A stretch of DNA of 64,000 nt from the NCBI GenBank assembly GCA_049287305.1, contig JBAQFO010000014.1, positions 64,453 through 128,452 on the forward strand, given 5' to 3'. Positions 1 to 64,000 of the stretch are shown piece after piece. The first letter of the stretch is position 1, and every line of letters begins with the position of its first letter. The DNA comes from Minisyncoccia bacterium. Lineage in GTDB: Bacteria > Patescibacteriota > Minisyncoccia > Phycocordibacterales > UBA9973. The notes below the pieces were generated by a model that was not told the origin of the DNA, did not search any database, and worked only from the letters and a program-made list of their open reading frames with translations. A program made the translations under genes and the position numbers.

Positions 1-1697
1 TTAACTTTTATGAAAAAATAAAAGTTCCTCCGCCCACATTTTGCCATTTATGCAGAGCCGAAAGGCGTTTTAGTTATAGAAATGAAAGAAAACTTTTCAA
101 GGTAAAAGACGCTTTCACGGGAAAAGAAATTCTATCTACTTACCCAACTGAAAGTGGCAGAAATATAATCACCAGAGACACATGGCTTGGCGACAGCTGG
201 GACGCGATGGATTACGGCATGGATGTGGATTTTTCCAGACCATTTTGGGAGCAAATACATGAGCTTGAAATGAAAGTCCCGATGTATAACTATAATGTTA
301 TAAAAATGATAAACAGTCCTTATGCTTTTAATGCCACAGGGTTGAAGAACAGCTATCTCGTAGTAAATTCTAGTTACTCCGAAGATTGCATGTTCGGCAA
401 CGCAATTGACTATTGTAAGGATTGTGTAGACAACTCTCATATCCAGGAAACCGAAAGATGTTATGAATGTTTCTGGCTGCGCAAATGCTATCAATGTTAT
501 TTTACGATAATGTCATGGGACTCAAGGAATTTATGGTTTTCTAGAGATTGCGGAGGTTGCAGTGATTGTTTCGGGTGTGTTAATTTGCGCCAATCATCCT
601 ATTGTATTTTCAACAAGCAATATACGAAAGAAGAATATGAGAAAGAGATAGAAAAGATGAAACTTGATACCTCTTCAGGCATTAAAGAGGCGCGAGAAAA
701 AGTCAGAGCTTTTTGGCAAACTCAAATAACAAGGCATCAGCAAGGTGTAAGAAATTTAAACTCAACCGGTTCTTATGTAACGGACAGCAAGAATGTAAAA
801 GATAGCTATCTAGTGAGAGAAAGTGAAAATTTAAAATATTGCCAGTACTTACAAGTTCCCAGCAGTAAGGACAATTACGATGTTGCTAACTGGGGCCAGA
901 ATATTGAATTATGCTACGAAACGATAGAGTGCGGAGAAAATTCTTATAATAATAAATTTTCTAGAAATTGCTGGCCATCATGCCGAAACATAGAGTACGG
1001 CGTCCACCTTTTTAGCTCCTCTGATTGTTTTGGCTGCGTAGGTCTGAAGAAGAAACAATATTGTATCTTGAATAAGCAGTATACCAAAGAAGAATATGAG
1101 GAGTTGGTGTCAAAAATAAGAAAGCACATGGAAGATATGCCTTATATTGATTCGCGGGGAATTATTTATAAATATGGGGAATTTTTTCCTATTGAGCTTT
1201 CGCCTTTTGGGTATAACAATACTCTCTCTATTCAGCATTTTGACCTTACAAAAGAAGAAGCAGAAGGTAAGGGATATACTTGGATCGAGTCAGAGAAAGG
1301 GGAATATGTTATTACCATGAAAGCCGACGAGTTGCCTGATGCGATAGAAGATATTGCCGATTCTATTGTAAAAGAAGTTATAGAATGTGAAAAATGCCAG
1401 CGAGCTTATCGTATACTAGAAAACGAATTTATTTTCTTGAAAAAAGAAAATTTACCTCTTCCACGATTATGCAGCGAATGCAGACATGAGCGTCGTATAA
1501 GTGATAGACTAAAGTTGTTTTTATACGAGCGAACCTGCATGTGTGCCGGGGTTACGGACGAAACTGGCAAATATCAAAATACTGTCCAGCATGCGCACAG
1601 AAGCTCCGCCTGTTCGGAAAAATTTAAAACCGGATATTCGGGTGAGCGCCCCGAAATAGTTTATTGCGAAAAGTGCTATCAGCAGGAAGTGTATTAA
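1..1697 (+). CDS. Cysteine-rich multi-zinc-ribbon paralog family member 1 (5' end truncated by window edge; about 20 aa missing)
   Basis: Continuous reading frame from position 3 (NFYEKIKVPPPTFCHLCR...). Shares internal repeats C..C..CFGCV.L+.K.YCI.NKQYTKEEYE (x2), MPYIDSRG..YKYGEFFP..SPFGYN, and the C-terminal C..C..YxI..NE..F.K...LPLPR.C..CRH ... EFETSYAP.RPEIVYCEKCYQQEVY with ORFs at 2759, 4498, 34967, 37574 and 63426(-). Confidence 0.8.
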   Translation, partial: NFYEKIKVPPPTFCHLCRAERRFSYRNERKLFKVKDAFTGKEILSTYPTESGRNIITRDTWLGDSWDAMDYGMDVDFSRPFWEQIHELEMKVPMYNYNVIKMINSPYAFNATGLKNSYLVVNSSYSEDCMFGNAIDYCKDCVDNSHIQETERCYECFWLRKCYQCYFTIMSWDSRNLWFSRDCGGCSDCFGCVNLRQSSYCIFNKQYTKEEYEKEIEKMKLDTSSGIKEAREKVRAFWQTQITRHQQGVRNLNSTGSYVTDSKNVKDSYLVRESENLKYCQYLQVPSSKDNYDVANWGQNIELCYETIECGENSYNNKFSRNCWPSCRNIEYGVHLFSSSDCFGCVGLKKKQYCILNKQYTKEEYEELVSKIRKHMEDMPYIDSRGIIYKYGEFFPIELSPFGYNNTLSIQHFDLTKEEAEGKGYTWIESEKGEYVITMKADELPDAIEDIADSIVKEVIECEKCQRAYRILENEFIFLKKENLPLPRLCSECRHERRISDRLKLFLYERTCMCAGVTDETGKYQNTVQHAHRSSACSEKFKTGYSGERPEIVYCEKCYQQEVY

Positions 1698-2386
1698 ATT
1701 CTATTAACCGCGCGGTAAGTAGCCACTATGGCGGCGGTTTCTCCTCGTAGGGTTAGGGAACCAAGAGAGGCGACTCGGTAGCCTGCTTTTTTTGCAAGTG
1801 CTACTTCTGCTTCAGTAAATCCGCCTTCTGGTCCTATAAAGATATTTACAGTTTTCACATTTTTATTTTGCGAATATGATTCGCCACCGAGGTGGAAGAT
1901 AGTCTTTTCTTCTGCTTCCGGATTATTCTTTAGCGCGTCTTCAAATTTTAAAATAGGGGACAGGGTAGGGACTACGCTTCTTCCTGATTGTTCGCTCGCT
2001 TCCCGGATAATTTTTATGAGGCGTTCGGTATTTAATCCGGTTTTGACAGTCCGCTCGGTAATTATTGGAGTAATGTTTGAAACTCCCGTTTCAACCGCTT
2101 TTTGAACAGCCAGTTCAAAATTTTCTTTCTTTAATATCGCTAAATATAAACTTACTTTTGTTTCGGTTTCTTCCAAGTGTATAATTTTCTCCATACCTAC
2201 AGAAATACTCTTCGGAGACATGTCTAAAATTGTAGCTTCTGCTACACCGCCTTTACCATCTCCCAAAATTATTCTATTTCCAATTTCCAGCCTCAAAACA
2301 CCCTTTATTTGCTTGATATTTTCTGGGTTGGTAATTTTCAGCTCTTTTTTTGACAAATTAAAATCTCCAATAAATCTATGTAATCT
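1694..2386 (-). CDS. rsmE: 16S rRNA (uracil1498-N3)-methyltransferase RsmE (SPOUT family)
   Basis: N-terminal MRLHRF..., C-terminal IFIGPEGGFTEAE...SLG..TLR.ETAA motif typical of RsmE. The ORF track extends to 2404; the internal MRLHRF start at 2386 is more likely. Confidence 0.7.
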   Translation of the reverse strand, partial: RLHRFIGDFNLSKKELKITNPENIKQIKGVLRLEIGNRIILGDGKGGVAEATILDMSPKSISVGMEKIIHLEETETKVSLYLAILKKENFELAVQKAVETGVSNITPIITERTVKTGLNTERLIKIIREASEQSGRSVVPTLSPILKFEDALKNNPEAEEKTIFHLGGESYSQNKNVKTVNIFIGPEGGFTEAEVALAKKAGYRVASLGSLTLRGETAAIVATYRAVNRI

Positions 2387-2447
2387 CATGTTTACATAAT
2401 ACACCCGAAATGTTAAAATAAAAAGTAGTAAATAGTTTCAGATATCA

Positions 2448-2465
2448 TTCTAAAGTTCGTTAGAA
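2448..2465. promoter_or_regulatory. Palindromic operator-like site 1, TTCTAAagttcgTTAGAA (6-6-6 inverted repeat), 17 nt upstream of the ArsR-type gene start
   Basis: Perfect 6-bp inverted arms seen directly. A near-identical copy occurs at 2726-2743. Both are followed by (t/c)at(t)AGAATA. Confidence 0.4.
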
Positions 2466-2481
2466 TTATAGAATATATAAT

Positions 2482-2754
2482 ATGAAAAAATCAAACCGAG
2501 CATTAGAAAGAATTATAAAAGGTTTTGCCAGCTATAGGAGATTACAAATACTAGAACTTTTGAAAAAAGAGCCGGAATTATCCTTGCAGGAAATTTCTGA
2601 AAGGGTTAATTCTGATTTCAAAAATATCTCCTCTCATATTGGTAAAATGGCAATTGCTGGTTTGTTGATGAAGCGCAGTGATGCACATTCAGTAAGACAC
2701 AAATTAACTAAAAGAGGAATTAATGTTCTTAAGTTCGTTAGAACATTAGAATAA
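2482..2754 (+). CDS. ArsR/SmtB-family winged-helix transcriptional regulator
   Basis: 90 aa. SYRRLQILELLKKEPELSLQEISERVNSDFKNISSHIGKMAIAGLL matches the ArsR HTH pattern (L..RL.IL..L...ELS..EI......S.HL..L..AGL). No canonical metal-sensing ELCVCD motif seen. Confidence 0.7.
   Translation: MKKSNRALERIIKGFASYRRLQILELLKKEPELSLQEISERVNSDFKNISSHIGKMAIAGLLMKRSDAHSVRHKLTKRGINVLKFVRTLE
2726..2743. promoter_or_regulatory. Palindromic operator-like site 2, TTCTTAagttcgTTAGAA, overlapping the 3' end of the ArsR-type gene and 16 nt upstream of the Cys-rich paralog 2 start
   Basis: Second copy of the 18-bp motif (17/18 identical to the site at 2448-2465) with the same downstream AGAATA. Confidence 0.4.
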
Positions 2755-2758
2755 AAAA

Positions 2759-4495
2759 ATGGAACAAGAAACAAAAAACTGTCAAAATTGCAAAAAAGAT
2801 TTCATTATAGAGTTCGAGGACTTTAACTTTTACGAGAAAATAAAGGTGCCTCCGCCTACTTTTTGTCCGGAATGCAGAATGACCTCAAGAATGATCTGGA
2901 GAAATGAGCGCTCGCTATACAAACGAGACTGCGATTTCTGTAAAAAGAGTATTATTTCAGTATATTCAAAGGACGCAAATTTTCCTGTTTATTGTTATGA
3001 ATGCTGGTGGGGTGATAATTGGGATCCCAGAGAATATGGACAAGATTACAATTTTTCTAAAGTTTTTTTTGAGCAATTACTTGAGTTATCTACGAAAGTA
3101 CCGCGTCAAGCTCTCGGCGTTATTAGTAATTTTAATAGTCCATATTTAAATTATGCTTGGCATAGCAAGAACAGCTATATGTGTTTTGATCTCGGTTACG
3201 GGGAAAATGTTCTATATTCAAATGCTTGTCATTACCTGAAAGATTCTTCAGATAATAGCTACTGTAAAAAACTTGACCTCTGTTATGAGTGTGCAGATAG
3301 TCAGGAATCAAGTATGTCAGATACCCTTGAAAAATGTAAAAATTGCCTAGATTCTTCTTTTCTTTTTAATTGCAAAAGCTGCTCCTCTTGTATTCTTTGT
3401 TCTAATTTAACTAGCAAGCAGTATTGTATTTTAAATAAACAGTATACAAAAGAAGAATATGAAAAGATAAAAAAAGATTATATCGATGGCAGTTTTGCAA
3501 AGAGGGAAAGCACTGCTAAGTTATTTAAACAATTAAAAATAGAATCAATTCAGAGAGAAAACAATAATGTTCAGGTAAAAAACTGTACAGGAGATAATAT
3601 TTGGAGTAGCGATAATTGTAAAAAATCTTTTAATGTTTTCAAATCTCAAAATTGTAAATTCGTGAATGACATTGATAGCAGTTTAAAGGATAGTATGGAT
3701 TTAAGTAATGCAGCAGAAGGAGAACTTATGTATTACAGCACTTCAGCTAGCGGTAGAAGCCTATTTTTTAATGTTTTTATCTCGTCCTCCTTCAATATAT
3801 TTTATTCAATCTTATGTCCTAACAATAACAACAATTTGTTTGCATGCATTGGCTTGCGAAACAAAAGTTATTGCATATTAAACAAACAGTACACAAAAGA
3901 AGAATACGAAGAGCTTATACCTAAAATTAAAAAACATATGGACGAAATGCCATATATTGATTCTAGGGGTCTTGTATATAAATATGGGGAATTTTTCCCA
4001 AGAGAATTCTCACCATTTTCTTACAACGAAACAGTAGCTCAAGAAAACTTTCCGCTCAACAGAGACGAAGCCATAAATCAAGGTTATAAATGGAAAGATA
4101 AGGATGCCCGAAATTATGCCGTAGAAATCATGAATGAAAATATCCCTGATAATATTAAAGATGCAACTGATGACGTTATAGGTAAAGTTATAGAATGTAA
4201 AAACAAAGGAGAAAACAGCGAACAATGCACAGAAGCGTTCAAAATTATCGAGCAGGAGTTTTATTTTTATAAGAGAATGAATTTACCTTTACCTCGTTTT
4301 TGCCCCAATTGTAGACACCACGAAAGGTTAGGAAAAAGAAACCCCATGAAACTCTGGAAAAGAGGATGCATGTGCGAAAAAGAAAATCATATGCACGGCT
4401 CAATTAAATGTGAAATCGAATTTGAGACAAGTTATGCTCCCGACCGACCAGAGATAATTTACTGTGAAAAGTGCTATCAGCAGGAAGTTTACTAA
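2759..4495 (+). CDS. Cysteine-rich multi-zinc-ribbon paralog family member 2
   Basis: 578 aa. N-terminal C.NC..F.IE.EDFNFYEKIKVPPPTFCPECR...RNE..LY.R.C.FCKK zinc-ribbon module; two internal C..C..C..C..L..K.YCILNKQYTKEEYE repeats; C-terminal module ending EFETSYAPDRPEIIYCEKCYQQEVY. Starts 5 nt after the ArsR stop. Confidence 0.85.
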   Translation: MEQETKNCQNCKKDFIIEFEDFNFYEKIKVPPPTFCPECRMTSRMIWRNERSLYKRDCDFCKKSIISVYSKDANFPVYCYECWWGDNWDPREYGQDYNFSKVFFEQLLELSTKVPRQALGVISNFNSPYLNYAWHSKNSYMCFDLGYGENVLYSNACHYLKDSSDNSYCKKLDLCYECADSQESSMSDTLEKCKNCLDSSFLFNCKSCSSCILCSNLTSKQYCILNKQYTKEEYEKIKKDYIDGSFAKRESTAKLFKQLKIESIQRENNNVQVKNCTGDNIWSSDNCKKSFNVFKSQNCKFVNDIDSSLKDSMDLSNAAEGELMYYSTSASGRSLFFNVFISSSFNIFYSILCPNNNNNLFACIGLRNKSYCILNKQYTKEEYEELIPKIKKHMDEMPYIDSRGLVYKYGEFFPREFSPFSYNETVAQENFPLNRDEAINQGYKWKDKDARNYAVEIMNENIPDNIKDATDDVIGKVIECKNKGENSEQCTEAFKIIEQEFYFYKRMNLPLPRFCPNCRHHERLGKRNPMKLWKRGCMCEKENHMHGSIKCEIEFETSYAPDRPEIIYCEKCYQQEVY

Positions 4496-4497
4496 AT

Positions 4498-6216
4498 ATG
4501 AAAACCGAAACAAAAAATTGTCAAAATTGTAAAAAAGACTTCACTATAGAGCCGGAAGATTTTAACTTTTATGAAAAAATAAAAGTTCCCCCACCAACAT
4601 TTTGTCCGGAATGCAGACTTATGCGTCGTATGACCTGGCGCAATGAACGTACTTTACATAGAAATAAATGTGCTAAAACTGGCAAAAGTTTAATAAGTTG
4701 TTTTTCTGCAGAATCTCCATTTACCGTTTACGAGAGAGATATTTGGTGGGGAGATGAATGGGATCCGACAGGATATGGAATAGAATATGATTTTGAAAAA
4801 CCATTTTTTGCTCAAATTCGCGAATTATTAGAAAAAGTGCCTCACCCAAATCTGTTCATTGGAAAGTGTGTAAATACTTCTTACGGTAATCATATTGGTG
4901 AATTTAGAAATTCATATCTTATATCTGCATCTTGGGGAGGAGATAATATAGCATATGGGTCTCGTTGCAATTACTGCAAAGATTCGATGGATATGTATAT
5001 AACTACTAACTCTGAATTTTGTTATGGTGATATTTCTTCAAATAAATGTTACGAAACTTTCTTCTCTCAGAACGCAGATTCTTGTACGAGCTCATATTTT
5101 CTTTATGATTGTAAAAACTGTATAAATTGCTTCGGTTGCACATCACTTCGCGATAAGTCTAATTGTATGTGGAATGTTCAATATACGAGAGAAGAATATA
5201 ATGAAAAATTAAAAGAATTAGATATTGGTGATTTTGAAAAGTTTAAAAAGATAAAAGAGAAGTTCGAAAAATTTAAATTAAATGCTGTCAGAAGATTTGC
5301 AAATATCACGAACTCAACTAATGTTTCTGGGGATGATATTTCTCATGCAGATAATTCTCAATCTTGCTTTGGTGTCTTTGAAGAAATAAAAAATAATAAA
5401 TTCTTAATGAATGCTTTTCGTATCAAGGATAGTTATGATGGCTATGGTGTTGGCATTGGAGAATTGATATATGAAGCTTTAGATTCTGGTCTTAATGCAT
5501 ATCGGCAACTTTTTGCATTTATAAATTGGGAATGTCTCAATGCTGAATATTCTTTCAACTGTCATGGATGTAACAATATTTTCGGTTGTGTCGGTCTTCG
5601 CAAGAAGAATTACTGCATTTTTAATAAACAATATTCTAAAGAAGAATTTTTAAAACTTCGTGAACAAATTATTGAGCACATGGATAAGATGCCATACATT
5701 GATAAAAAGAAGCGAGAGTATAAATATGGAGAATTTTTCCCGACAGAAATTTCTCCGTTTGGATACAATGAGACTATTGCACAGGATTATTTTCCTCTTT
5801 CTAAAGAAGAAATTTCTAATAATGGTTATAATTGGATAGAACGAGAAAAACCTGAATACCAAGCAACTTCTTTATCTAAAGATTTACCTAATCACATAAA
5901 ATATGCTACAGAAGATATATTAAACCTAAGTATAGAATGTGAATTTTGTAAAAGGCCTTATAAAATAATCCAAAATGAATATATATTTTTAAAAAGGTTT
6001 GGTCTGCCATTGCCGAGAGCTTGTTTCGAATGTAGGCACCAAGAACGATTTAAGAAAGTTAATCCTCCAGAGCTTTGGCACAGATCTTGTATGTGCAATA
6101 AAGAAGGTCATATACACGAATTAACTAAATGCGAAGTTGAATTCGAAACCTCGTATGCTCCCGACAGACCCGAGATTGTCTACTGCGAAAAGTGTTATCA
6201 GCAGGAAGTTTACTGA
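4498..6216 (+). CDS. Cysteine-rich multi-zinc-ribbon paralog family member 3
   Basis: Same family. N-terminal region is about 80% nucleotide-identical to paralog 2, then diverges; C-terminal ...EFETSYAPDRPEIVYCEKCYQQEVY. ATG at 4498 (3 nt after the paralog 2 stop) preferred over the ORF-track start 4471, which overlaps the upstream gene. Confidence 0.85.
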   Translation: MKTETKNCQNCKKDFTIEPEDFNFYEKIKVPPPTFCPECRLMRRMTWRNERTLHRNKCAKTGKSLISCFSAESPFTVYERDIWWGDEWDPTGYGIEYDFEKPFFAQIRELLEKVPHPNLFIGKCVNTSYGNHIGEFRNSYLISASWGGDNIAYGSRCNYCKDSMDMYITTNSEFCYGDISSNKCYETFFSQNADSCTSSYFLYDCKNCINCFGCTSLRDKSNCMWNVQYTREEYNEKLKELDIGDFEKFKKIKEKFEKFKLNAVRRFANITNSTNVSGDDISHADNSQSCFGVFEEIKNNKFLMNAFRIKDSYDGYGVGIGELIYEALDSGLNAYRQLFAFINWECLNAEYSFNCHGCNNIFGCVGLRKKNYCIFNKQYSKEEFLKLREQIIEHMDKMPYIDKKKREYKYGEFFPTEISPFGYNETIAQDYFPLSKEEISNNGYNWIEREKPEYQATSLSKDLPNHIKYATEDILNLSIECEFCKRPYKIIQNEYIFLKRFGLPLPRACFECRHQERFKKVNPPELWHRSCMCNKEGHIHELTKCEVEFETSYAPDRPEIVYCEKCYQQEVY

Positions 6217-6240
6217 TTTTTATGGTAAAATAACCTATAT

Positions 6241-7737
6241 ATGCCCAAGCCGAATCGAGTGCAAATAATAAAATATGGGCCACCACCGCCAGAGCTGCCT
6301 GTTTTCGGCAAAGTTAAGCCCGAAGAATGCTCTTTCATTGGACGCACGAATTATGTGGCTTCTCTTGAAGAAAAAAAGTTCGTTTTCGGAATCAAAAGAG
6401 TAGACCGCCGCAGGCACCTATATATCATTGGAAAGTCGGGTGTAGGTAAGACCAAACTTCTCGAGCTCATGATTCGACAAGACGTGTCCTACGGGCATGG
6501 ACTATGTTTAATTGACCCGCACGGAGACGTGATAGACGCAATGCTGGATTATATACCGAAGGAGCGAATTGAGGATGTTTGTATTATCGACCCATCCGAT
6601 ATTGATTTTCCGGCGTCCTTCAATCCTTTGGCGAACGTTGACCCCATGTTTAAATTCCAGTTAACGCAAGGGTTGATAGAAGTTTTTCAAAAACAGTTCG
6701 GAGCCAACTGGACGCCCCGCCTGGAGCACGTTTTTCGTTTTACTTGTCTCGCGCTCTTGGACTACCCGCATGCGACCATGCGTGGGATGATATCCATGCT
6801 AACCGACCGAAACTACAGACAGAAAGTTGTGGAATACATTACTGATGACATGGTTAAAAGATTCTTTGCCATAGAATTTGCCGACTGGTCCGAGAAATTT
6901 GATACAGATGCGATTATTCCGTTGGTGAACAAACTCGGGCAATTCCTATCAGACCCGCTTCTTAGAAACATTTTCGGACAGAAACAAAACAAAATTGATA
7001 TCAGTAAATTAATGAATGAGAGAAAAATTATTTTCATTAATCTTTCCAAGGGACGCCTTGGAGAAGAGAATTCCTCATTTCTTGGTTCCATATTTTTAAC
7101 AAAGATAAAACAGGCGGGTATGGAGCGGGCGGCTATCCCGGAAGCTGAACGTAAAGATTTTTATCTTTACGTGGATGAGTTCCAAAACGTCGTGACTCAG
7201 ACTTTTGAGAACATCCTCTCTGAGGCTCGCAAATACGGACTTAATCTTACAATGGCGCATCAATATGTAGGACAGATAATACCTAAAGTTCACCAGGCGG
7301 TGCTAGGTAACTGCGGAAGCATCATTACTTTTCGAATCGGAGGTGAAGATGCAGTGAAAATGAAGCCGGAATTTGCGCCATTGTTTGACGTTAAAGATAT
7401 GATAAATCTAGCCGTGGGAGAGATTTATATAAAGATGACTATTGATGGCGAATCTTACGATCCATTTTCAGCAGAAACTCTGATGGTTCTTCCGGCTACG
7501 CATCCATCTTACAGACAGGAAATAATTGATGCTTCGCATAGAAAATACTCCATACCGAAAGGAGACGCGGCCAAGCTTATTGCCGAAGAAGAAGCAACCA
7601 TAATCAGAAGCTCCGAAGAGAAAGCCATAATAGAAGGAAGGAATAAAACAAAACCCCAAGGACCAGAAGGAGACACAAATTCTTCGGAAGAAAATTCCAA
7701 ATCTCGGACTTCACAAGAGGCGGAGCCTATGATATAA
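6241..7737 (+). CDS. Soluble TraD/VirD4/TrwB-like (type IV coupling protein-like) P-loop ATPase
   Basis: Walker A HLYIIGKSGVGKTKLL, CLIDPHGD, Walker B YLYVDEFQNV, no N-terminal TM segments. Acidic/Ser-rich C-terminal tail. Confidence 0.7.
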   Translation: MPKPNRVQIIKYGPPPPELPVFGKVKPEECSFIGRTNYVASLEEKKFVFGIKRVDRRRHLYIIGKSGVGKTKLLELMIRQDVSYGHGLCLIDPHGDVIDAMLDYIPKERIEDVCIIDPSDIDFPASFNPLANVDPMFKFQLTQGLIEVFQKQFGANWTPRLEHVFRFTCLALLDYPHATMRGMISMLTDRNYRQKVVEYITDDMVKRFFAIEFADWSEKFDTDAIIPLVNKLGQFLSDPLLRNIFGQKQNKIDISKLMNERKIIFINLSKGRLGEENSSFLGSIFLTKIKQAGMERAAIPEAERKDFYLYVDEFQNVVTQTFENILSEARKYGLNLTMAHQYVGQIIPKVHQAVLGNCGSIITFRIGGEDAVKMKPEFAPLFDVKDMINLAVGEIYIKMTIDGESYDPFSAETLMVLPATHPSYRQEIIDASHRKYSIPKGDAAKLIAEEEATIIRSSEEKAIIEGRNKTKPQGPEGDTNSSEENSKSRTSQEAEPMI

Positions 7738-7784
7738 ATAGCCGGGAGAGTCGGAGTTTTTGGCATTAACTACAATTTAAATAT

Positions 7785-8879
7785 ATGAAACAAGACTACT
7801 ACGAAATTCTAGGCATAAATAAAGGCGCATCTAAGGATGAAATCAAAAAAGCCTTTTATAAATTGGCTCATAAATATCACCCTGATAAAAAAGGAGGGGA
7901 TGAGACCAAGTTCAAGCAGGTAAACGAAGCTTATCAAGTGCTCTCTGACGATTCTAAACGCTCTAAATATGACCAATTCGGAGCGGGGTTTGAGAACATG
8001 GGACAGCAAGGAGGATACGGACGGGGACAAGGAGGAGGCTTTGAAGGATTTGACTTCAGTAATTTTTCTGGAGGCTTTCAAAATGGGGGAGCGGATTTTG
8101 ACCTTAATGACATATTTAGTGACTTTTTTGGTGGTGGAATGGGGAGAGCGCAAGCTCGTCGGGGCCGGGATATTTCCACGGAGATTCAAATTTCTTTTGC
8201 GGACTCTGTCTTTGGAACTACCAGAAAAATTTTAATCACAAAAACTTCCAAGTGTATTACTTGCAATGCTACGGGGGCGAAAGCAGGCTCCAAGATGGAA
8301 ACTTGCAAGCACTGCAACGGACAAGGAAAAATTCACGAACAAAAAAGAACTATCTTCGGCACAATAGCCAATACCAAGCTTTGCGAAGTTTGCCTGGGTT
8401 CCGGGGAAGTTCCAAAAGAGCCTTGTGAAAAATGTAAAGGCAAAGGAGTATTGCGCCGAGAGGAAGAAGTTTCTATCGTTATACCAGGAGGAATTCGAGA
8501 CGGAGAGATGGTGCGCATGTCTGGGCTCGGGGAAGCAATTTCAAAAGGAACATCCGGAGACTTGTATATAAAAATAAACGTCGCTTCCCACCCGGTCTTT
8601 AAGCGTGACGGTAATGATTTGGTTATGAATTTAAATTTAAAACTTTCCGATGCGCTTCTGGGGACCAAGTACCCAATACAAACCTTAGACGGAGAAATAG
8701 AAGTTACTATTCCCGAAGGAGTAACCATTAATGAAGTTCTCCGCGTGCGGGGCAAGGGCGTGCCAATAAGTAAATCAAAAAGAGGGGATTTGCTTATTAA
8801 ACTTAATATCAAGCTTCCGGAAAAATTAAACCGCAAATCTAGAGAAATGATAGAAGAGCTCAAAAAAGAAGGAATATAA
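7785..8879 (+). CDS. dnaJ: Chaperone DnaJ
   Basis: J-domain [31 protein letters not shown], Gly/Phe-rich linker, four C..C.G.G zinc-finger repeats, C-terminal substrate-binding domains. Confidence 0.9.
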
Positions 8880-8880
8880 A

Positions 8881-10318: not shown

Positions 10319-10321
10319 AAA

Positions 10322-50706: not shown

Positions 50707-50710
50707 AAAA

Positions 50711-51678: not shown

Positions 51679-51685
51679 TTTTTGG

Positions 51686-52900: not shown

Positions 52901-52908
52901 AAAAATGT

Positions 52909-53151: not shown

Positions 53152-53204
53152 AGGCGTATTATATCAACAAAAGAGGAGCATGCGCAACCTTGACTTGCTC
53201 CATA

Positions 53205-55165: not shown

Positions 55166-55176
55166 TACTTCTTATA

Positions 55177-56559
55177 TTACTTTGAAGCGAGTTTTCCCGC
55201 AAGACCGACATAATTCAGCGGAGTAAAGGAAAGCAGTTCCTTTTTAATTTTTTCACTAACTTCCAACTTTGTTATAAATTCGTGAATATCCGAAAGCTCT
55301 ATTTTTTTACCTCGGGTTAAAGCCTTCAGTTTTTCATAAGGCATTTCCACTCCTTCCCGTCTTAGAATAGTCTGGATTGCTTCCGCCACAACTTCAGGGT
55401 GTTTTGCCAAGTCTTCTTTAATTTTTATTTCATTCACACTTATTTTCTCCAGTCCTTTCAGTAGATATTCGTAAGCAATCAAAGAGTGGGCAAAAGCTGT
55501 TCCAAAATTTCTTTGCACCGTGGAATCCGAAAGGTCTCGCTGAAGTCGGGAAATTGGCAGTTTGCGTCCAAAGAATTCAAACAAAGAGTTTGCAATTCCA
55601 AGGTTGCCCTCGCTGTTTTCAAACTTTATCGGGTTTACTTTGTGAGGCATGGTGGAAGAGCCTACGGCGCCCTCTGTGGGCTTTTGAACAACCCATTCAT
55701 CGCTTATGTATCGCCACATGTCCTGGTTTAACCCCATTAGGATTGTGTTGATTTTCCTCAAATTATCAAAGAGATCTATATAAGAATCATGGGGTTCAAT
55801 TTGAGTAGTATGCATATTGGCTTCCAGCTTTACGCCAAATTTTTTGTTCAAGCCGGAAATGAAATCTTTGCTGAATTTTATCCAATTTATATTCGGATAT
55901 GCCGCTACATGAGCGTTAAAGTTTCCGGTTGCTCCGTTTAATTTTGCGGATATTCCAACATTCTCAAGAATATTGGAATATCGTTTTAGACGTTCGGCAA
56001 ATACTTTCATCTCTTTGCCGAAAGTGGTAGGGCTTGCGCTCTGGCCATGGGTGCGGGCCAACATCGGAGTATTTTTGTGTTTTGCGGCCAGGGTATTCAG
56101 TTCTAAAATTATTTTATTTATTTTAGGTAAAACAACATCTTCCAAAGACTGAGAGAGCATTAAAGCATAAGATAAGTTGTTGGTATCTTCACTGGTTAAT
56201 CCGAAATGGATCCATTCCAAGGTATCCTTAAGTGACGTGCTTCCCAGTTTTTCTTTCATAAAATATTCCACTGCCTTCACGTCGTGGTCAGTCGCTTTTA
56301 TATTTTTATATCCCTTGGTTTCTATGTCGCTGATTATTTTTGCGTCGGTGTCTGACAGGGCATAAAGAGACCGGACAATTTTCTTTTCATTTTCGGATAA
56401 TTTTCGTAATTTTAGCTTCAGTTCGGATAAAGCGATAAAGTATTCCCCTTCTACTATAATCCTGTAACGCATTAACCCCTGCTCACTCATAAATGGTGAG
56501 AGAGCCGAAGCAGATTTTTCGTAGCGTCCATCTATGGGAGAAATTGAATTTAATGACAT
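55177..56559 (-). CDS. purB: Adenylosuccinate lyase
   Basis: SPIDGRYEK..., TSEDTNN, fumarate-lyase signature GSSTMPHKVNP. Confidence 0.85.
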   Translation of the reverse strand: MSLNSISPIDGRYEKSASALSPFMSEQGLMRYRIIVEGEYFIALSELKLKLRKLSENEKKIVRSLYALSDTDAKIISDIETKGYKNIKATDHDVKAVEYFMKEKLGSTSLKDTLEWIHFGLTSEDTNNLSYALMLSQSLEDVVLPKINKIILELNTLAAKHKNTPMLARTHGQSASPTTFGKEMKVFAERLKRYSNILENVGISAKLNGATGNFNAHVAAYPNINWIKFSKDFISGLNKKFGVKLEANMHTTQIEPHDSYIDLFDNLRKINTILMGLNQDMWRYISDEWVVQKPTEGAVGSSTMPHKVNPIKFENSEGNLGIANSLFEFFGRKLPISRLQRDLSDSTVQRNFGTAFAHSLIAYEYLLKGLEKISVNEIKIKEDLAKHPEVVAEAIQTILRREGVEMPYEKLKALTRGKKIELSDIHEFITKLEVSEKIKKELLSFTPLNYVGLAGKLASK

Positions 56560-57518
56560 TATATCTTAGTTAAATTATTGGTAATTCTCTCCACCATGGT
56601 GCGCGAAAAGTCGTGATTAAAACTTTTGCCTGTAATTATTTCGTAAATTTCAATATATCGGCGGGAGAGTTCAGCCACGAGTTCTGGCGGAGCCTGCGGA
56701 AGCACTTCGTCTTTATATGGGTCGCAATTTTCTTTAAACCACAAGCGTAAAAATTCCTTATCAAAAAATTCCGGGTCTAATCCTTGGCTGAAGCGCTCTT
56801 CGTATGTATTTGCTTTCCAGTAGCGGGAAGAGTCTGGGGTGTGGATTTCATCTATAAGCATCAGTTTGCCGTTTTCATCCAAACCGAATTCGTATTTGGT
56901 GTCCACGAGAATAAGCCCCTTACTTAAAGCTATTTCTTGTCCGCGAGTAAATATTTTTATCGCCTTATCCGCCATTTCGTTCCACAGCTTCTCGGGCACC
57001 ATCCCCTCTTCCACGATTTCTTTGGGAGTTATCGGCCTGTCGTGTTTTTCGGATTTAGTTGTCGGCGTTAGAACAGACTTGTCTAATTTTTGGTTTTTTT
57101 TCATTCCGTCAGGCAAAATGAAATTTCCAAAGTCTCTTTGTCCGTTTTTGTATATTGTCCACAGGGAAGTATTGGTGGAGCCCGTTATGTATCCTCGGAC
57201 AACCATTTCTATTGGAATGACCTTACATTTTTTGGCGACGACGATGTTGGGGTCGGGGGTGCTTATTACGTGGTTTGGAACTATGTCCTTAGTGTTTTCA
57301 AACCAAAAAAGACTGATTTGATTTAATACTTCTCCCTTGAAAGGGATGGATGCGATATTTCGGTCAAAAGAAGAGTGCCTATCGGTAGAGATTAGAGTAA
57401 TGTGGTCAGTGGCTGTGTAAATGTCTCTAACCTTTCCCACCTTCTTTTCTCCCAATGCCGGAAAATTTGTTTCAACTAAAACGTCATCTATGTGTTCTTT
57501 TATTTTTTCTATATCCAT
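56559..57518 (-). CDS. purC: SAICAR synthetase
   Basis: KVGKVRDIY...LISTDRHSSFD. Confidence 0.85.
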   Translation of the reverse strand: MDIEKIKEHIDDVLVETNFPALGEKKVGKVRDIYTATDHITLISTDRHSSFDRNIASIPFKGEVLNQISLFWFENTKDIVPNHVISTPDPNIVVAKKCKVIPIEMVVRGYITGSTNTSLWTIYKNGQRDFGNFILPDGMKKNQKLDKSVLTPTTKSEKHDRPITPKEIVEEGMVPEKLWNEMADKAIKIFTRGQEIALSKGLILVDTKYEFGLDENGKLMLIDEIHTPDSSRYWKANTYEERFSQGLDPEFFDKEFLRLWFKENCDPYKDEVLPQAPPELVAELSRRYIEIYEIITGKSFNHDFSRTMVERITNNLTKI

Positions 57519-57523
57519 AAAAT

Positions 57524-58681
57524 TTACATGTAGCTTATAACTTTACCTTTGGTTAATTTTGAATTTATTAAAACTTTCGGTTCAACGCTTCTCGTGATTT
57601 TCCCCGCCACCCTAGCTTTTATTCCGAAATCCTCCGCTCTTTTTATGCAGTAATCCGCATCCTTTTCCTCTATTATTAGTAGCATGCCTTGCCCTCCGTT
57701 CCAAACCTCATAAAACTCTTCGTCGGAAATTTTTCTCCATTCTGCGCAATTCTTCATAATTAAAGGAGGTTCCCATAAATCAAAAAGTTCTGCTGAAAGA
57801 TTCTTTGGGAAAAGAATATCTTTTGCCAGTTTTTCTTTCAGCGCTCCTCCGGAAAGGTGGACGATAGACTTAATATCTATTTCCGGCTTGAAATTTTCAT
57901 CAAACCATCCGTGTAAGGTATTAACAAACATATCGTATAAAATGGAAGGGTGAGCAGCCTGTTTAATACTTTCTTTGGCCTCTGGATTATTCCACCACTC
58001 TCCGCCGAATTTTTCCCTTAAAGCCTTTCGCACGGAACTTATGCCATTACAACGAAACCCTTCTTCCTTGAGAGCAATAATAACCTGCCCTTCCATAAGA
58101 CTATCTCCTGTTATCATTTTGTCGGGGTGGTAAGCGCCGATCATTACCCCCGACCAGTTTAATTTTGTTTTGGAATCGGTAATTTCGGAGCCTAAGGCAT
58201 CCCCCATCTGAGCAGTCTCACCTTTTAAAACTACAACTTTGCCCTCTTTCGCGACCTCTCCCAAACCCGTAATCGCGCTTTTGTAAGTTTCGTTCACCTC
58301 GTCGCCCTTATTCCCAACAGAAGTGGTGTCAAAAATGTTTATGAAAACAAGCGGGACTCCTCCGAACCTAGTAATGTCGCTTGCCGTCATAGCAATAATG
58401 TCATACGCAGCTAATTTGTGGGTTTTGGCGGCGTCTATTAATATCCCTTTGGTGCCTATTCCGTCCGCGGATGCCTCGGTAAAATATCCGTTAGGAAGAT
58501 TTTTAAAAACAAAAGGCCTGGGGCCGCGAAAATTGCCCTGAGATAAGTCTTTTACCTCCACGAACGGAGAATTATTGTAGCTTGCTTTGCAAACAGACCC
58601 TGCAAAACTACTGAACAAGGCTTCTTCTTCTATGTCTACTCCGTCTTTGGAAGAATTTTTTTTCTTGGTCAGTTCGCTCAT
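57524..58681 (-). CDS. purM: AIR synthetase
   Basis: Aligns with the E. coli PurM N-terminus (DGVDIEEE, SADGIGTKGILID, DIIAMTASDI, GETAQMGD). Confidence 0.75.
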   Translation of the reverse strand: MSELTKKKNSSKDGVDIEEEALFSSFAGSVCKASYNNSPFVEVKDLSQGNFRGPRPFVFKNLPNGYFTEASADGIGTKGILIDAAKTHKLAAYDIIAMTASDITRFGGVPLVFINIFDTTSVGNKGDEVNETYKSAITGLGEVAKEGKVVVLKGETAQMGDALGSEITDSKTKLNWSGVMIGAYHPDKMITGDSLMEGQVIIALKEEGFRCNGISSVRKALREKFGGEWWNNPEAKESIKQAAHPSILYDMFVNTLHGWFDENFKPEIDIKSIVHLSGGALKEKLAKDILFPKNLSAELFDLWEPPLIMKNCAEWRKISDEEFYEVWNGGQGMLLIIEEKDADYCIKRAEDFGIKARVAGKITRSVEPKVLINSKLTKGKVISYM

Positions 58682-58684
58682 GAT

Positions 58685-59200
58685 TTATTTTTCAAGATAT
58701 TTTTTATACCCAATCTCAGAAAGCTTATTGCCTTTTGCTTCTACTTCATCCGCCATCTTCTTTTTATAGGTTATGAGCTTGTCCTCTAAAGTTTTATCTC
58801 CCGTTGCCAGTATTTGCACCGCCGCAAGACCTGCATTTTTTCCGGAGTTAATACCTACGGTGATGACTGGAATTCCCGGAGGCATTTGCACCGTGGAGAG
58901 CAAAGAATCCAACCCGTCCAAGCTCTTGGCTTTAACAGGAAGTCCGATGACCGGCAGAGTTGTATGCGCGGCAATAACTCCGGCAAGGTGAGCCGCGCCG
59001 CCCGCCCCCGCAATTAAAACTTTTATTCCCCTGTCGGCTGCGCCTGCAGAATATTTCTGTGCCCGTTCTGGAGAACGGTGCGCAGAACCCACGGTTATAT
59101 CATAAGATACGTCAAAATCTTCCAGAACTTTGGCCGCCTCAGCCATTACTTCCAGGTCCGAATCGGAGCCCATAATTATTCCAACTTTTGGATTATTCAT
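58685..59200 (-). CDS. purE: N5-CAIR mutase
   Basis: [11 protein letters not shown]...SAHRSPE...[14 protein letters not shown]. Confidence 0.85.
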
Positions 59201-59236
59201 ATGAAGCTATTTTAGCATTTTGTGAATAAAAAACAA

Positions 59237-60535
59237 TCAGAGAGAAGGAGGAAGAGAAAGCGCTTTTTGCCCGATATCTTTGCGGTATTGCATTCCTTCA
59301 AACGATATACTTTCTATCGCTTTGTAAGCTTTTGTCAGAGCTTCTTTTAGTTTGTCTCCCGTTGCGGAGACTCCTAAGACTCTTCCTCCGTTTGTGACTA
59401 TATTGCTTCTATCAAATTTTGTTCCGGCGTGGAATACGACAATGTCTGGGTTTGTTTCTGCTTCGTTAATGCCAGAAATAACTTTTCCTTTTTCGTAGTT
59501 ACCGGGATAGCCACCCGAAGCTAGGACAATATTGCAGGCAAATCCGGATTTCCATTTTATATCCACCTTGTCCAATGTGCCGTCTATGCACGCATTAAAT
59601 ATATCCAAAATGTCAGTGTCCAGAAGTCGCATGTAAGTTTGGGTTTCGGGGTCTCCGAAGCGGGCGTTGTATTCCAAGATTTTCGGGCCGTCTTTTGTGA
59701 GCATGAGCCCGGGATATAAAAGCCCGGAAAAAGGCGTCCCCTCTTGTTCCATGGCTTTAATGCTTTGGGCTACAATTTGTTCTTCAATTTCTTTGATTAG
59801 CTTGCTCCCAATAAAAGGCAGAGGGGCTATTGTTCCCATTCCGCCAGTGTTGGGGCCGGAGTCGTTTTCTCCTATCTTCTTATGGTCCTGTGAAGGCGGA
59901 ATAATTTTATAATTTACGCCGTCTGAAAAGACGTGGATGGAAATTTCGGGCCCGGCCAAGAATTTTTCTATTACAATTTCCTTGCCAGCATCGCCAAAAA
60001 TTTTATTTATGAAAATGTCTTCAAGGGTTTTGTGGGCGTCTTCTCGAGTTTCGCAAATAATTACACCTTTACCTAGAGCGAGTCCGCTGGCTTTGATGAC
60101 AATAGGTAAAATCTGTTCATCAGCGTATTTTTTTGCACTATCAATATTGTTAAAAATTTCAAATTTGGCTGTGGGCAAGAAATGCTTCTTCATAAAATCT
60201 TTGGAAAAGGCCTTGGACCACTCCAGTCTGGACGCTGCTTTGGTTGGGCCCCAAATACGGAGATTTTCCTTTTTAAATTCGTCAACTATTCCAAGCGCCA
60301 ACGGGTCGTCAGGAAGCGCCAAAGTCAAACTAATATTTTCTTTTTTGGCAAACTCCAAAAGTTTCGGAATGTCGGTGGCTTGGATATCCATGTTTGTCCC
60401 TATTTTACTTGTTCCAGCATTGCCCGGGGCGAAATATATTTCGCCGGCGCGCATAGATTGTCTTACTTTCCAGCCTATCGCGTGTTCCCTCCCTCCTCCC
60501 CCTATGATTAAAATTTTAAGCCTGTTGTTATCCAT
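59237..60535 (-). CDS. purD: GAR synthetase
   Basis: KILIIGGGGREHAIGWK plus the ATP-grasp body. Confidence 0.85.
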   Translation of the reverse strand: MDNNRLKILIIGGGGREHAIGWKVRQSMRAGEIYFAPGNAGTSKIGTNMDIQATDIPKLLEFAKKENISLTLALPDDPLALGIVDEFKKENLRIWGPTKAASRLEWSKAFSKDFMKKHFLPTAKFEIFNNIDSAKKYADEQILPIVIKASGLALGKGVIICETREDAHKTLEDIFINKIFGDAGKEIVIEKFLAGPEISIHVFSDGVNYKIIPPSQDHKKIGENDSGPNTGGMGTIAPLPFIGSKLIKEIEEQIVAQSIKAMEQEGTPFSGLLYPGLMLTKDGPKILEYNARFGDPETQTYMRLLDTDILDIFNACIDGTLDKVDIKWKSGFACNIVLASGGYPGNYEKGKVISGINEAETNPDIVVFHAGTKFDRSNIVTNGGRVLGVSATGDKLKEALTKAYKAIESISFEGMQYRKDIGQKALSLPPSL

Positions 60536-61268
60536 TGGGATATAATTTTTTTGCGTTTTCTTTGCATTCGTTAAGCATTACCTCTTCTCCGGGCAGAATA
60601 AGCGGAGTTTTTCGGTGGAATTCTTCCACGGTGCCGTTTATGAAATCTTGCAAAAGTTCTATTTGGACTTCATGCTCAATTGGTAATACTCTCATTGAGA
60701 GCGTTTCAGCCGTGTCGTATGGCAAAATGGGAACTTGCTTGTTTTTTAAAACAATACCTTCGTCAAATTTTTCCGTAACTCTATGCGCTGTGGCTTCCGT
60801 CCAGAAATCCGTATTTGTTTTATTCACGAATTCTAGACGTGCTTGGTGCACCCGCATACCGAACATTCCCGCGCCACCGAAATCCGGTCTGCCATTGTCG
60901 AGAGGTCCGGGATGCTGGTTTATAACTCGGTCTTTGTATTTTTTAATAACATTTAGCGGTGTTTTCCAAAGCCAGCCGTATTGACCGATAAAATTCACGT
61001 CTCTTTTTTCGCACTCCTCTATTATTTTTTGTCCGAACTCTTCTCGGCTGGTAAAGTCTTTCGGGTTTATTATTAAAATATCCTCGTCCTTTATTTTTAA
61101 CGCCCGCGCCTTGGCAATACCCCCGGCCTCCGCACTACTTGAAATGACGAGAACTGGTTCGCAATTTGTTAATTTTCCGCTTCGGCAAGCCTTAATAATG
61201 GCTTCCATTGTCGTGCCGCTGCCGGAAATAAGCAGCGCGATTTTTAAGTTATTCTTTTGGTACGTCAT
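60528..61268 (-). CDS. purN: GAR formyltransferase
   Basis: KIALLISGSGTTMEAII, HPGPLD catalytic region. Confidence 0.8.
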   Translation of the reverse strand: MTYQKNNLKIALLISGSGTTMEAIIKACRSGKLTNCEPVLVISSSAEAGGIAKARALKIKDEDILIINPKDFTSREEFGQKIIEECEKRDVNFIGQYGWLWKTPLNVIKKYKDRVINQHPGPLDNGRPDFGGAGMFGMRVHQARLEFVNKTNTDFWTEATAHRVTEKFDEGIVLKNKQVPILPYDTAETLSMRVLPIEHEVQIELLQDFINGTVEEFHRKTPLILPGEEVMLNECKENAKKLYPNG

Positions 61269-62649
61269 GATTTACTTCAATGTTTCTTTCCTTTAAATCA
61301 ATAGGATATTCCCCGGTAAAAAAAGAGGTGGACAAATGGTTGGCCGGAAGACCTATGGATTTTATCAAATTAGGGAGGGATAAATAATGAAGACTGGTGG
61401 CTCCCAAGAATTTTCGGATTTCCTCCACTGTTTTGTTCGAAGCAATCAAATCTTTCTGCTCCGGGGTGTCTATACCATAAAAATCAGGGAATCGCACAGG
61501 GGGCGAAGATACCAAGAAGTGAACTTCTTTTGCTCCTGCCTTAAAAAGCGTTTGCACAAGCTTTCTGCTGGTAGTGCCCCGCACAATAGAGTCGTCTATT
61601 ACCGCTATTTTCTTACCTTTTAGCACTTGTTTAAGTGGAATAAGCTTTAATGCTACGCTGTGTTCTCGGGATTTTTGGTCGGGTTCAATAAATGTTCGGT
61701 GCACGTATCGGTTTTTTACCAAAGCCATTTCTATTGGAATTCCCGAAACTTCGGAATATCCCAAGGCTACGGGAGTTGCGGTGTCGGGCACAGGCACGAT
61801 CGCGTCAACCTTTAATTTGTGTTCATGAGCAAGAGCTTTGCCGAAATTTTTTCTCACGTCATAAATCAATTTTCCCGCCAGCACGCTGTCGGGACGGGAA
61901 AAATACACATATTCAAAAATATCATGCTTTGGCGTAGCTTTTGCCAGCTTAACGCTTTTTAATCCTTTTTTGTTTATTACCACCATTTCTCCCGGCACAA
62001 TTTCTCTGACAAATGAAGCACCAATGGTTTCCAGGGCGCAGGTTTCCGAAGCAACCACATAGCCTTTATCTATTTTACCCAACACTAGCGGACGCATGCC
62101 GAATGAATCTCGAACTGCCACCAGTGTGTCTTTGTTCATCATTACCAAAGAAAAAGCTCCGGTAATGAGCGGGAAAACTTTTTTTATCGCAACCGGAAGA
62201 GTATTCTTTTCTTTTAAATAAAAATTTATAGCGTCAGTTATGAGCTCGGAGTCCATGCGATTTTTTTGCAGTGTTTTTTTTGACAAAAGAAATTTTTCCA
62301 GCGCTTTTACACTAGGTAAATTCCCGTTATGAGCAAGCGCAAAAGTGTGCTCAAAATTTATTACAGGCTGGGCATGGTCAAGCGCCCCGCCACCCGAAGT
62401 TGAATATCTGTTGTGTCCAATTCCAATATATCCTTTTAAATTTTCAATATCTTTCTCTTTGTAAACTTGAGCTACCAAACCAGCGCCCTTATGGGAATGA
62501 AATTTCTTGCCGTCGCTCGTGGTAATGCCGGAAGCTTCCTGCCCCCTGTGCTGTAGGGCAAAGAGCGCGAAAAAAGCCAATCGAGAGACGGGTAATCCTT
62601 GACCGAACATTCCTACGATTCCGCATTTTTCGTTTAACTCCTCAATCAT
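61249..62649 (-). CDS. purF: Amidophosphoribosyltransferase
   Basis: Short propeptide MIEELNEK then catalytic CGIVGMFG; PRTase motif KKIAVIDDSIVRGTT. Start moved to 62649 (the ORF-track extension to 62907 would run through purQ). Confidence 0.85.
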   Translation of the reverse strand: MIEELNEKCGIVGMFGQGLPVSRLAFFALFALQHRGQEASGITTSDGKKFHSHKGAGLVAQVYKEKDIENLKGYIGIGHNRYSTSGGGALDHAQPVINFEHTFALAHNGNLPSVKALEKFLLSKKTLQKNRMDSELITDAINFYLKEKNTLPVAIKKVFPLITGAFSLVMMNKDTLVAVRDSFGMRPLVLGKIDKGYVVASETCALETIGASFVREIVPGEMVVINKKGLKSVKLAKATPKHDIFEYVYFSRPDSVLAGKLIYDVRKNFGKALAHEHKLKVDAIVPVPDTATPVALGYSEVSGIPIEMALVKNRYVHRTFIEPDQKSREHSVALKLIPLKQVLKGKKIAVIDDSIVRGTTSRKLVQTLFKAGAKEVHFLVSSPPVRFPDFYGIDTPEQKDLIASNKTVEEIRKFLGATSLHYLSLPNLIKSIGLPANHLSTSFFTGEYPIDLKERNIEVNHDVPKE

Positions 62650-63424
62650 TTTTATTAAAATACTTAATCGCGTTTTTAAAAATTTGCAATCCTGCGCCTT
62701 CTTTTTCCAGCTTTTTTTTCTCGTCAGAGGAACGGGCGAACATTTGCCACATTGGATTCTGGTGGGGAAACATCGCTCTCTCCGGATGAGGCATAAGACC
62801 CAACACTCTGCCATTATATGCCAAAACCCCGGCAATGTCATAATCGGAGCCGTTAGGATTCTTTTCCAGATTTTGATATTTGCAAATTTCTCCTTTTTCG
62901 TAAACAAAAGCTATCTCCCCATTCGCTTTCATTTTCTCATACTCTTTTGCGGAGACGACATAATGCCCTTCCCCGTGGGCAATTGGTATAGAAAGTTTTT
63001 TGATTCCCCCGAGCCAAGGGCTTTTGCCCACAACTTTCAAATCCACCCATCTGTCTATATATTTTCCGTTTTTATTGAAAGTAAGTCCTCCAGGCAGAAT
63101 TCCAAGATTGGTTATAATCTGAAATCCGTTACAAATTCCAATCACTAGAGTGTCCCGGGACAAAAATTCTTCCAGTTCTTTGCTTAAGTGGTTCTTGAAT
63201 TTGTTTGCGAAAGCTTTGCCACTGCCGGTGTCGTCGCCATAAGAAAATCCGCCAGGGAAAACAAGGACTTGGTATTGTGAAAGAATTTTTGGCTTGGCAA
63301 TAAGGTCGTTCAGATGCACTATGTTCGCCTCGCCGCCCGACCAATCAAAAGCGAATTTAGTTTCCTCTTCGCAATTAAGCCCGTAGCCCGACATTATTAT
63401 GATTTTTGGTTTTTTGTTTTTCAT
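62642..63424 (-). CDS. purQ: FGAM synthase glutamine amidotransferase subunit
   Basis: KIIIMSGYGLNCEEE..., GICNGFQII (catalytic Cys), HPERAMFP. Confidence 0.8.
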   Translation of the reverse strand: MKNKKPKIIIMSGYGLNCEEETKFAFDWSGGEANIVHLNDLIAKPKILSQYQVLVFPGGFSYGDDTGSGKAFANKFKNHLSKELEEFLSRDTLVIGICNGFQIITNLGILPGGLTFNKNGKYIDRWVDLKVVGKSPWLGGIKKLSIPIAHGEGHYVVSAKEYEKMKANGEIAFVYEKGEICKYQNLEKNPNGSDYDIAGVLAYNGRVLGLMPHPERAMFPHQNPMWQMFARSSDEKKKLEKEGAGLQIFKNAIKYFNKND

Positions 63425-63425
63425 A

Positions 63426-64000
63426 TTAATAAATCTCTTGCTGGTAACATTTTTCGCAATGTATAGGGTATTTTACCTGATCTTCTGGCTGATAAGAAGT
63501 GAGTATGTCAGTATCGCATTTAACGCATTTACCATTCCATAAATTTCTGATATTTCTTCTACTCATGCGAGCTGTGTGTCTGCAATTAAAACATTTTACT
63601 GGGATAGAAATTTTATTTCTTTTATAAAAATTTATTTCCCGACCAATCAACTTATAGTTTTTTTGGCAAGTTTCGCAGGTGAATATTTCATTTAAAAGGT
63701 CGTCACCAAACTCTTCCGGATTTTTAGGTATGTCCTTATTACTTATAGTTCCCTGTCCACTAGTGCTGGGTATGTTATCTTTCCATGAAAAGCCCTGAGC
63801 CAAGGCCTCTTCTTTAGTAAGAGGCATATATTCGTTGACTATAGCTTCATTATAACCAAGCGGGCTGAGTTCTTTTGGAAAAAAGTTGCCCCATTCCCCT
63901 GTTGCTTTTAAACTCTCAATTATTTTTTCTTTTAACTCCTCGTATTTGTCTTTACTGTATTGTTTGTTTAAAATACAAAAAGATTTTTTCCTTAAACCAT
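63426..64000 (-). CDS. Cysteine-rich multi-zinc-ribbon paralog family member 6 (5' end outside window)
   Basis: Frame continues open to the window edge: ...SFCILNKQYSKDKYEEL...GEWGNFFPKELSPLGYNEAIVNEYMPLTKEEALAQGFSWKD...CETCQKNYKLIGREINFYKRNKISIPVKCFNCRHTARM...HCEKCYQQEIY. Its stop is 1 nt before the purQ ATG (TAA-T-ATG). Confidence 0.8.
   Translation of the reverse strand, partial: GLRKKSFCILNKQYSKDKYEELKEKIIESLKATGEWGNFFPKELSPLGYNEAIVNEYMPLTKEEALAQGFSWKDNIPSTSGQGTISNKDIPKNPEEFGDDLLNEIFTCETCQKNYKLIGREINFYKRNKISIPVKCFNCRHTARMSRRNIRNLWNGKCVKCDTDILTSYQPEDQVKYPIHCEKCYQQEIY

Follow-up and report, generated by a model that had tools for sequence, protein, structure and literature searches.

The six related genes that we found in one stretch of a Minisyncoccia bacterium genome are very probably ancient, stable paralogs, in which conserved ends and diverged centres reflect differential purifying selection since old duplications, with no exchange of DNA between the copies. 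The stretch, hereafter the window, comprises 64,000 nucleotides (nt) of contig JBAQFO010000014.1 (positions 64,453 to 128,452, assembly GCA_049287305.1). A sequence-only reading of the window had called the same pattern cassette-like, and had proposed either gene conversion or recombination between copies or strong purifying selection on the end modules only. Conversion did not withstand analysis: silent sites are saturated, no tracts of silent identity are present, and the ends follow orthology. Our interpretation draws on the architecture of the proteins, the saturation of their silent sites, the orthology of their ends and the conservation profile of the family, which is large and specific to Patescibacteria.

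A tblastn search of the window with the three obvious copies, together with translation, yielded six family members, not three:

3 to 1697, plus strand: P1, truncated at the 5' side by the start of the window, with about 22 codons missing
2759 to 4495, plus strand: P2, 578 amino acids, GC content 0.33
4498 to 6216, plus strand: P3, 572 amino acids
34967 to 36646, plus strand: P4, 559 amino acids
37574 to 39313, plus strand: P5, 579 amino acids
63429 to 64000, minus strand: P6, C-terminal 190 amino acids only, the gene running off the window end

P3 starts at the ATG at 4498, not at the mechanically listed GTG at 4471, and is 100% identical to a protein from an NCBI metagenome-assembled genome (MAG) annotated "Minisyncoccia bacterium" (Patescibacteria). 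The copies in the window share 39-54% amino-acid identity with each other. Segment by segment, identity between paralogs falls from 54-69% over the first 100 residues to 30-45% in the centre and rises again to 54-67% over the last 100, so that the centres are indeed more diverged than the ends, and indels were seen in them as well. At the nucleotide level, the resemblance of about 80% reported for the starts of P2 and P3 was reproduced: counted from the start used in that reading, identity is 83% for the first 100 nt and 77.7% for 130 nt. The likeness claimed for the window start extends less far: identity between P1 and P3 is 80% across 60 nt but drops to 66% by 100 nt. Similarly, the near-identical 3' end said to be shared by all copies is confined to P1, P2 and P3 (three occurrences of the 36-nt motif with at most one mismatch, against a chance expectation of 0), whereas P4 and P5 show 10 mismatches each to the 36-nt end of P2.

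Silent sites carry no sign of exchange between the copies. We calculated silent-site divergence as the Nei-Gojobori proportion of synonymous differences (pS) in four segments per gene for every paralog pair. No segment of any pair departed from saturation: pS was 0.63-1.0 throughout and 0.65-1.0 in the ends. Codon choice was then compared at aligned codons with identical degenerate residues, with the expectation derived from gene-specific codon usage. In the ends of P2 and P3, 32 of 51 codons were identical versus 26.5 expected (z 1.6), and the same-codon rate for this pair was 63% in the ends and 65% in the centre. Across pairs, z ranged from -2.2 to 2.6 and was mostly below 2, with end values of 1.0-2.6 for the pairs other than P2-P3. 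For a cross-genome control, one member of each paralog pair was replaced by its ortholog from a different genome. The pooled same-codon rate in the ends was 219/396 (0.553) within the genome and 958/1925 (0.498) in the control, with true ortholog pairs at 0.36-0.65. Shared genomic codon preference could account for this excess of about 5 percentage points, which lies far below what a conversion tract would be expected to leave. A permutation test for runs of silent-site identity in 15 pairs found none significant in the ends (P > 0.19 for 14 of the 15); the sole nominal match, P2-P4 (P = 0.026), is a run in the centre of the gene. Pfam scans of 40 open reading frames (ORFs) of the window revealed no recombinase, reverse transcriptase or transposase.

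The family could be followed far beyond this genome. A protein search returned more than 7,700 relatives (clusters at 90% identity), all of them unnamed and without precomputed Pfam domains, and an exhaustive profile search (E <= 1e-3) gave 5,257 representatives at 50% identity. For comparison with the window we used 79 loci from a scan of GTDB species genomes plus three contig loci (L001-L003), which together hold 220 family ORFs, 193 of them full length. Four of the window copies have close counterparts there:

P1 orthologs: 70-73% identity (L020, L062, L081, L002)
P3 orthologs: 76-78% identity, best 78%
P4 ortholog: 73% identity (L076)
P5 orthologs: 64-70% identity (L065, L058, L072 and others)

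Identity to these orthologs (best 73, 78, 73 and 70% for P1, P3, P4 and P5) is well above that of any pair within the genome. The ends behave in the same way. Over the N-terminal residues 1-100, P1, P3, P4 and P5 each lie closest to their own orthologs from other genomes; over alignment columns 475-573 this is true of P1, P3 and P5. In region-wise rankings, between 1 and 97 foreign sequences stand ahead of the same-genome paralogs. The first 44 codons of P2 are 78% identical to P3 at the nucleotide level, and among 188 homologs from other genomes the maximum is 79% and the median 67%; over the last 11 codons P2 is 94% identical to P3, and homologs from other genomes also reach a maximum of 94%. 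Because homologs from other genomes attain equal identity, the nucleotide conservation of the ends is a property of the family and not of this genome. Every multi-copy locus elsewhere resembles the window in this respect, with identities of about 0.5-0.6 in the ends and about 0.3 in the centres, and the 253 same-locus paralog pairs in other genomes have a median identity of 42% and a maximum of 61%. We also considered P2 as a chimera with ends derived from P3. This was rejected: the nearest neighbour of its N-terminal part is a member of its own subfamily in L004, and on the C-terminal side 46 foreign sequences rank ahead of P3 over columns 475-573.

In several of these loci the family forms head-to-tail arrays on one strand (L029, L051, L026, L045 and L077). 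The array of L029:1-21773, from Patescibacteria group bacterium AH-259-L05, nearly fills its 21.8-kb locus with 12 ORFs (10 full-length and 2 cut by the locus ends), and that of L051 has 9 ORFs; the copies within the arrays are mutually diverged (39-58% identity). Two family loci come from MAGs with Proteobacteria labels, L007 (recorded as Burkholderiales bacterium) and L064 (recorded as uncultured Gammaproteobacteria). Since the family is otherwise exclusive to Patescibacteria, these are probably mis-binned contigs.

Where selection acts can be read from the 193 full-length proteins. Column information content peaks at columns 1-50 (about 3.0 bits), 351-425 (2.6-3.0) and 551-573 (3.2), and is lowest (1.5-1.8) at columns 151-200 and 251-350. 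The suggestion that purifying selection acts only on the end modules was therefore right about the end modules, which are under selection, but not about their being alone, as an internal block at columns 351-425 (FGC..LR.K.YCILNKQY.KEEY...YGEFFP) is conserved as strongly as the termini. Nor is the centre free of constraint. Nonsynonymous divergence (dN) between orthologs is nearly uniform along the gene (0.13-0.27 in the centre and 0.09-0.24 in other regions), from which it follows that the centre is under purifying selection inside each orthogroup. There it is conserved to the same degree as the ends, with an amino-acid identity of 0.64-0.78, whereas between paralogs dN is 0.5-0.76 in the centre and 0.22-0.53 in the ends. 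The centres thus differ between ancient subfamilies, a pattern that points to old functional divergence rather than to a hypervariable cassette.

The architecture of the proteins indicates what these regions may be. The main parts of P3 are as follows:

4498 to 4797, plus strand: N-terminal zinc-finger module (residues 1-100), with a CxxC...CxxCR core, homologous to the C-terminal module
4816 to 5223, plus strand: solenoid half 1 (residues 107-242), with 12-residue repeats and Cys/Ser/Thr/Ala at every third position
5263 to 5673, plus strand: solenoid half 2 (residues 256-392), homologous to half 1
5926 to 6213, plus strand: C-terminal zinc-finger module (residues 477-572), terminating in YCEKCYQQEVY

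Both internal homologies are strong in hhalign comparisons, with a probability of 98.8% (E 5.6e-17) for the N module (residues 4-80) against the C module (477-565), and of 99.8% (E 5.2e-30) for solenoid half 1 (107-242) against half 2 (256-392). Thirty diverse N-modules all retain four cysteines (C8, C11, C36 and C39), and the equivalent cysteines of the C-terminal module are invariant as well. In columns 127-214, about 90 residues within P3 107-242, every third residue of a repeat of about 12 residues is Cys, Ser, Thr or Ala. Over columns 125-225 the autocorrelation reaches +0.27 to +0.35 at each lag divisible by 3, as far as lag 24, and a control region shows none; the homologous second half carries the pattern less strongly. 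Half 1 of P3 closes in CxxCxxCFGC..LR...YCI.N.QY.KEEY, and the second half of P2 contains a poly-Asn run. The different Cys spacing that had been noted between the centres proved to be mostly an interchange of Cys and Ser at set positions, three residues apart, in a repeat register that is itself conserved. Since these columns accept either residue freely, close packing of small residues is suggested there, and obligate metal ligation or disulfides appear unlikely at these positions. An AlphaFold2 model built from 85 sequences is confident overall, with a predicted local distance difference test score (pLDDT) of 85 and a predicted template modelling score (pTM) of 0.86; the repeats are weaker (pLDDT 60-72) and contain short strands every 6-12 residues.

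The absence of the second N-terminal CxxC knuckle from P1 was borne out, and P3 lacks it as well. The pair of knuckles (CxxC...CxxC) is lost in the P1 and P3 orthogroups and kept in P2, P4 and P5; NKCA.TGK...VYDRD.WW is the P3-type consensus. Because the loss is conserved among P1 and P3 orthologs, it is an old subfamily trait.

Full-length copies have no match in Pfam or NCBIfam, and the paralogs match no PADLOC defence model. PDB sequence profiles gave no matches at E up to 10 for the whole protein or the N-module, and no significant match came from a Foldseek comparison of the AlphaFold2 model with PDB structures. Our literature searches found no description of this protein family. The end modules resemble the "probable treble clef" fingers zf_Tbcl (PF13451) and zf_Tbcl_2 (PF23477), which likewise have four invariant cysteines in two CxxC knuckles. 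The matches of the N-modules are weak (28/30 for PF13451 and 15/30 for PF23477) and all lie below the Pfam gathering score, the best for PF13451 having an E of 3.4e-5 and the first member scoring 17.9 bits against a cut-off of 24. Compared with zf_Tbcl, the family module is longer (about 80 residues), can carry a second pair of knuckles, has a WW.D.WD tail and is present twice per protein, on either side of the solenoid.

The periodicity of the solenoid appears to resemble that of 12-residue Cys-rich beta-solenoids such as the antifreeze protein of the beetle Tenebrio molitor. Repeats of about 12 residues with a small residue at every third position occur in both. There are also differences: neither by sequence nor by Foldseek does the family match a solved structure, Cys and Ser interchange, and the zinc fingers are of cytosolic type. 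No hydrophobic N-terminal stretch resembling a signal peptide was evident in the translations (no predictor was used). The top Foldseek matches in the PDB, none of them significant, are left-handed beta-helix proteins (gamma-carbonic anhydrase/PaaY, GlmU, serine acetyltransferase and dynactin p25/p27), with E >= 2.9, probability <= 0.03 and TM-score <= 0.16. These weak, model-based matches may suggest a solenoid-type central fold. The full-length copies have no Hexapep match in Pfam, and the periodicity of the family is 3/12, not the hexapeptide pattern of the left-handed beta-helix.

Taken together, the protein consists of an N-terminal zinc-finger module, one half of a beta-solenoid, a homologous second half, a small alpha/beta domain and a C-terminal zinc-finger module homologous to the first. 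Constraint is family-wide on the metal-binding end modules and on the block closing the second solenoid half. The solenoid surfaces are constrained only inside each orthogroup, resulting in the strong difference between paralogs. The nucleotide similarity of the ends follows from conserved amino acids encoded by an AT-biased set of low-degeneracy (two-fold) codons (K, E, N, F, Y, C and Q). We infer that the zinc modules serve a function shared by all copies and that the solenoid centres provide binding specificity particular to each paralog.

The patterns above bear directly on other explanations of conserved ends. Gene conversion or ectopic recombination that repeatedly homogenised the terminal segments while variable cores remained would account for the adjacent P2 and P3 having ends about 78-83% identical at the nucleotide level, for P2-P3 values lying near the top of the between-genome distribution, and for the small pooled same-codon excess in the ends. 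We nonetheless consider it highly improbable: the silent sites of the ends are saturated and fit codon usage, silent identity tracts are absent, the nearest neighbours of the ends are orthologs (P1, P3, P4 and P5 over residues 1-100; P1, P3 and P5 over columns 475-573), unrelated genomes give equal nucleotide identity, none of the 253 same-locus pairs exceeds 61% identity, and the scanned ORFs include no recombinase or reverse transcriptase. Multigene families that evolve in concert or as cassettes share with the window paralogs only the superficial features of multiple copies, conserved ends and divergent centres; their diagnostic features (silent similarity of the flanks, identity tracts, closeness of same-genome copies and recombination machinery) were each tested and all are missing. 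A hypervariable centre between fixed ends, under ongoing diversifying selection imposed for instance by changing targets, has in its favour the 30-45% identity and indels of the centre between paralogs, and a P2 centre that is at most 38% identical to anything sampled. However, the centre is as conserved as the ends in orthogroups (dN 0.13-0.27 versus 0.09-0.24 elsewhere) and the every-third small-residue register of the solenoid is kept family-wide, which makes this very unlikely, if slightly less so than conversion. Least probable of all is selection on the 5' and 3' ends at the nucleotide level, through mRNA structure, signals for translation initiation and termination, or small-RNA target sites. 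The conserved stretches do lie exactly at gene starts and stops, but between-genome codon identity at conserved residues is the same in the ends (medians 0.45-0.51) as in the rest (0.46-0.52), copy-to-copy differences are concentrated at third positions, and the window has no Rfam match.

Several points weigh against long-standing purifying selection without exchange as a full account. The orthology argument appears weakest for P2-P3, the very pair cited in the sequence-only reading, because P2 lacks a close ortholog in the sampled genomes: its best match elsewhere is only 54%, and its centre has the low ceiling given above. The comparison covered only more distant relatives of this organism than close strains, the nearest homolog of P3 being 79% identical. 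In the ends, the same-codon z reached 2.0 for P1-P3 and 2.6 for P4-P5, and the within-genome codon excess, though small, has a nominal z of about 2, with pairs that are not independent. Finally, very old or very short conversion events would leave no visible trace at such saturation.

The copies lie in a neighbourhood of mainly housekeeping genes. Two neighbours adjoin them directly:

2482 to 2754, plus strand: small winged-helix (ArsR/MarR-like) regulator, directly upstream of P2
6241 to 7737, plus strand: VirD4/TrwB/HerA-like ATPase, directly downstream of P3 (Pfam TrwB_AAD_bind, T4SS-DNA_transf, DUF87 and TraG-D_C)

A homolog of the regulator adjoins the P3 ortholog in L002 and L003. The ATPase is the commonest immediate neighbour of the family (26 of 81 loci), followed by a PaaX_M protein, GrpE, DnaJ and CutA1; part of this shared neighbourhood may be synteny inherited within Paceibacteria. 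Against PADLOC, the neighbouring ATPase gave only generic matches of the HerA/mad8 type. Longer versions of the neighbouring ATPase (compare L020:4107-6263 and L002:6146-8122) carry a zf_Tbcl_2 finger (E 6.6e-11), the same type of finger that the family end modules weakly resemble. In L002:8192-11725, L003 and L062 the P1 ortholog directly adjoins the P3 ortholog; in the window (1694-4495), RsmE on the minus strand, the winged-helix regulator and P2 stand between P1 and P3. The P2 stop and the P3 start are 2 nt apart (TAA AT ATG, window 4493-4500), a spacing that suggests co-transcription and possibly translational coupling. GC content is 0.33 in P2 and 0.32 in P3, and 0.31 and 0.24, respectively, at third codon positions, with a window average of about 0.41 and values of 0.34-0.40 in the remaining copies. 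Recent transfer as the reason for the low GC of P2 and P3 was rejected, since all six copies fall below the window mean; their composition, rich in K, N, Y, F and I, appears to explain it more simply. Of the 40 window ORFs, 6 had no Pfam match, and the matches of the others are all to housekeeping proteins or to the VirD4-like ATPase. They include RsmE, DnaJ, CysS-type synteny, RecR, DnaB and four aminoacyl-tRNA synthetases, as well as ScpA/B, FtsW, MurG, a penicillin-binding protein and purine biosynthesis genes. A search of the whole 64 kb against Rfam found no RNA family (tRNA, rRNA or riboswitch) at gathering score.

This setting allows a tentative and rather unlikely proposal for what the family does. 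With 5-12 or more non-redundant paralogs per genome, two treble-clef-like zinc modules would clamp a duplicated, Cys/Ser-lined solenoid, the paralog-specific surfaces of which would confer adaptor or recognition specificity. The proteins might work with the VirD4/TrwB-like ATPase often found beside them, for instance as recruiters of different substrates for a machine that translocates DNA or protein in these episymbionts.

A recombining cassette, if true, would indicate a mechanism for generating variation in a bacterium with a reduced genome. That claim can be set aside, as the pattern is one of ordinary domain-wise purifying selection in old paralogs. The family itself is of modest interest: it has thousands of members, none of which was matched above threshold in Pfam, NCBIfam or solved structures, and in single loci of other Patescibacteria it takes up as much as about 20 kb of contiguous sequence. 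Thus, as a heavily retained multi-copy family found repeatedly beside a VirD4-like ATPase, it is a reasonable target for structural and functional work on Patescibacteria.

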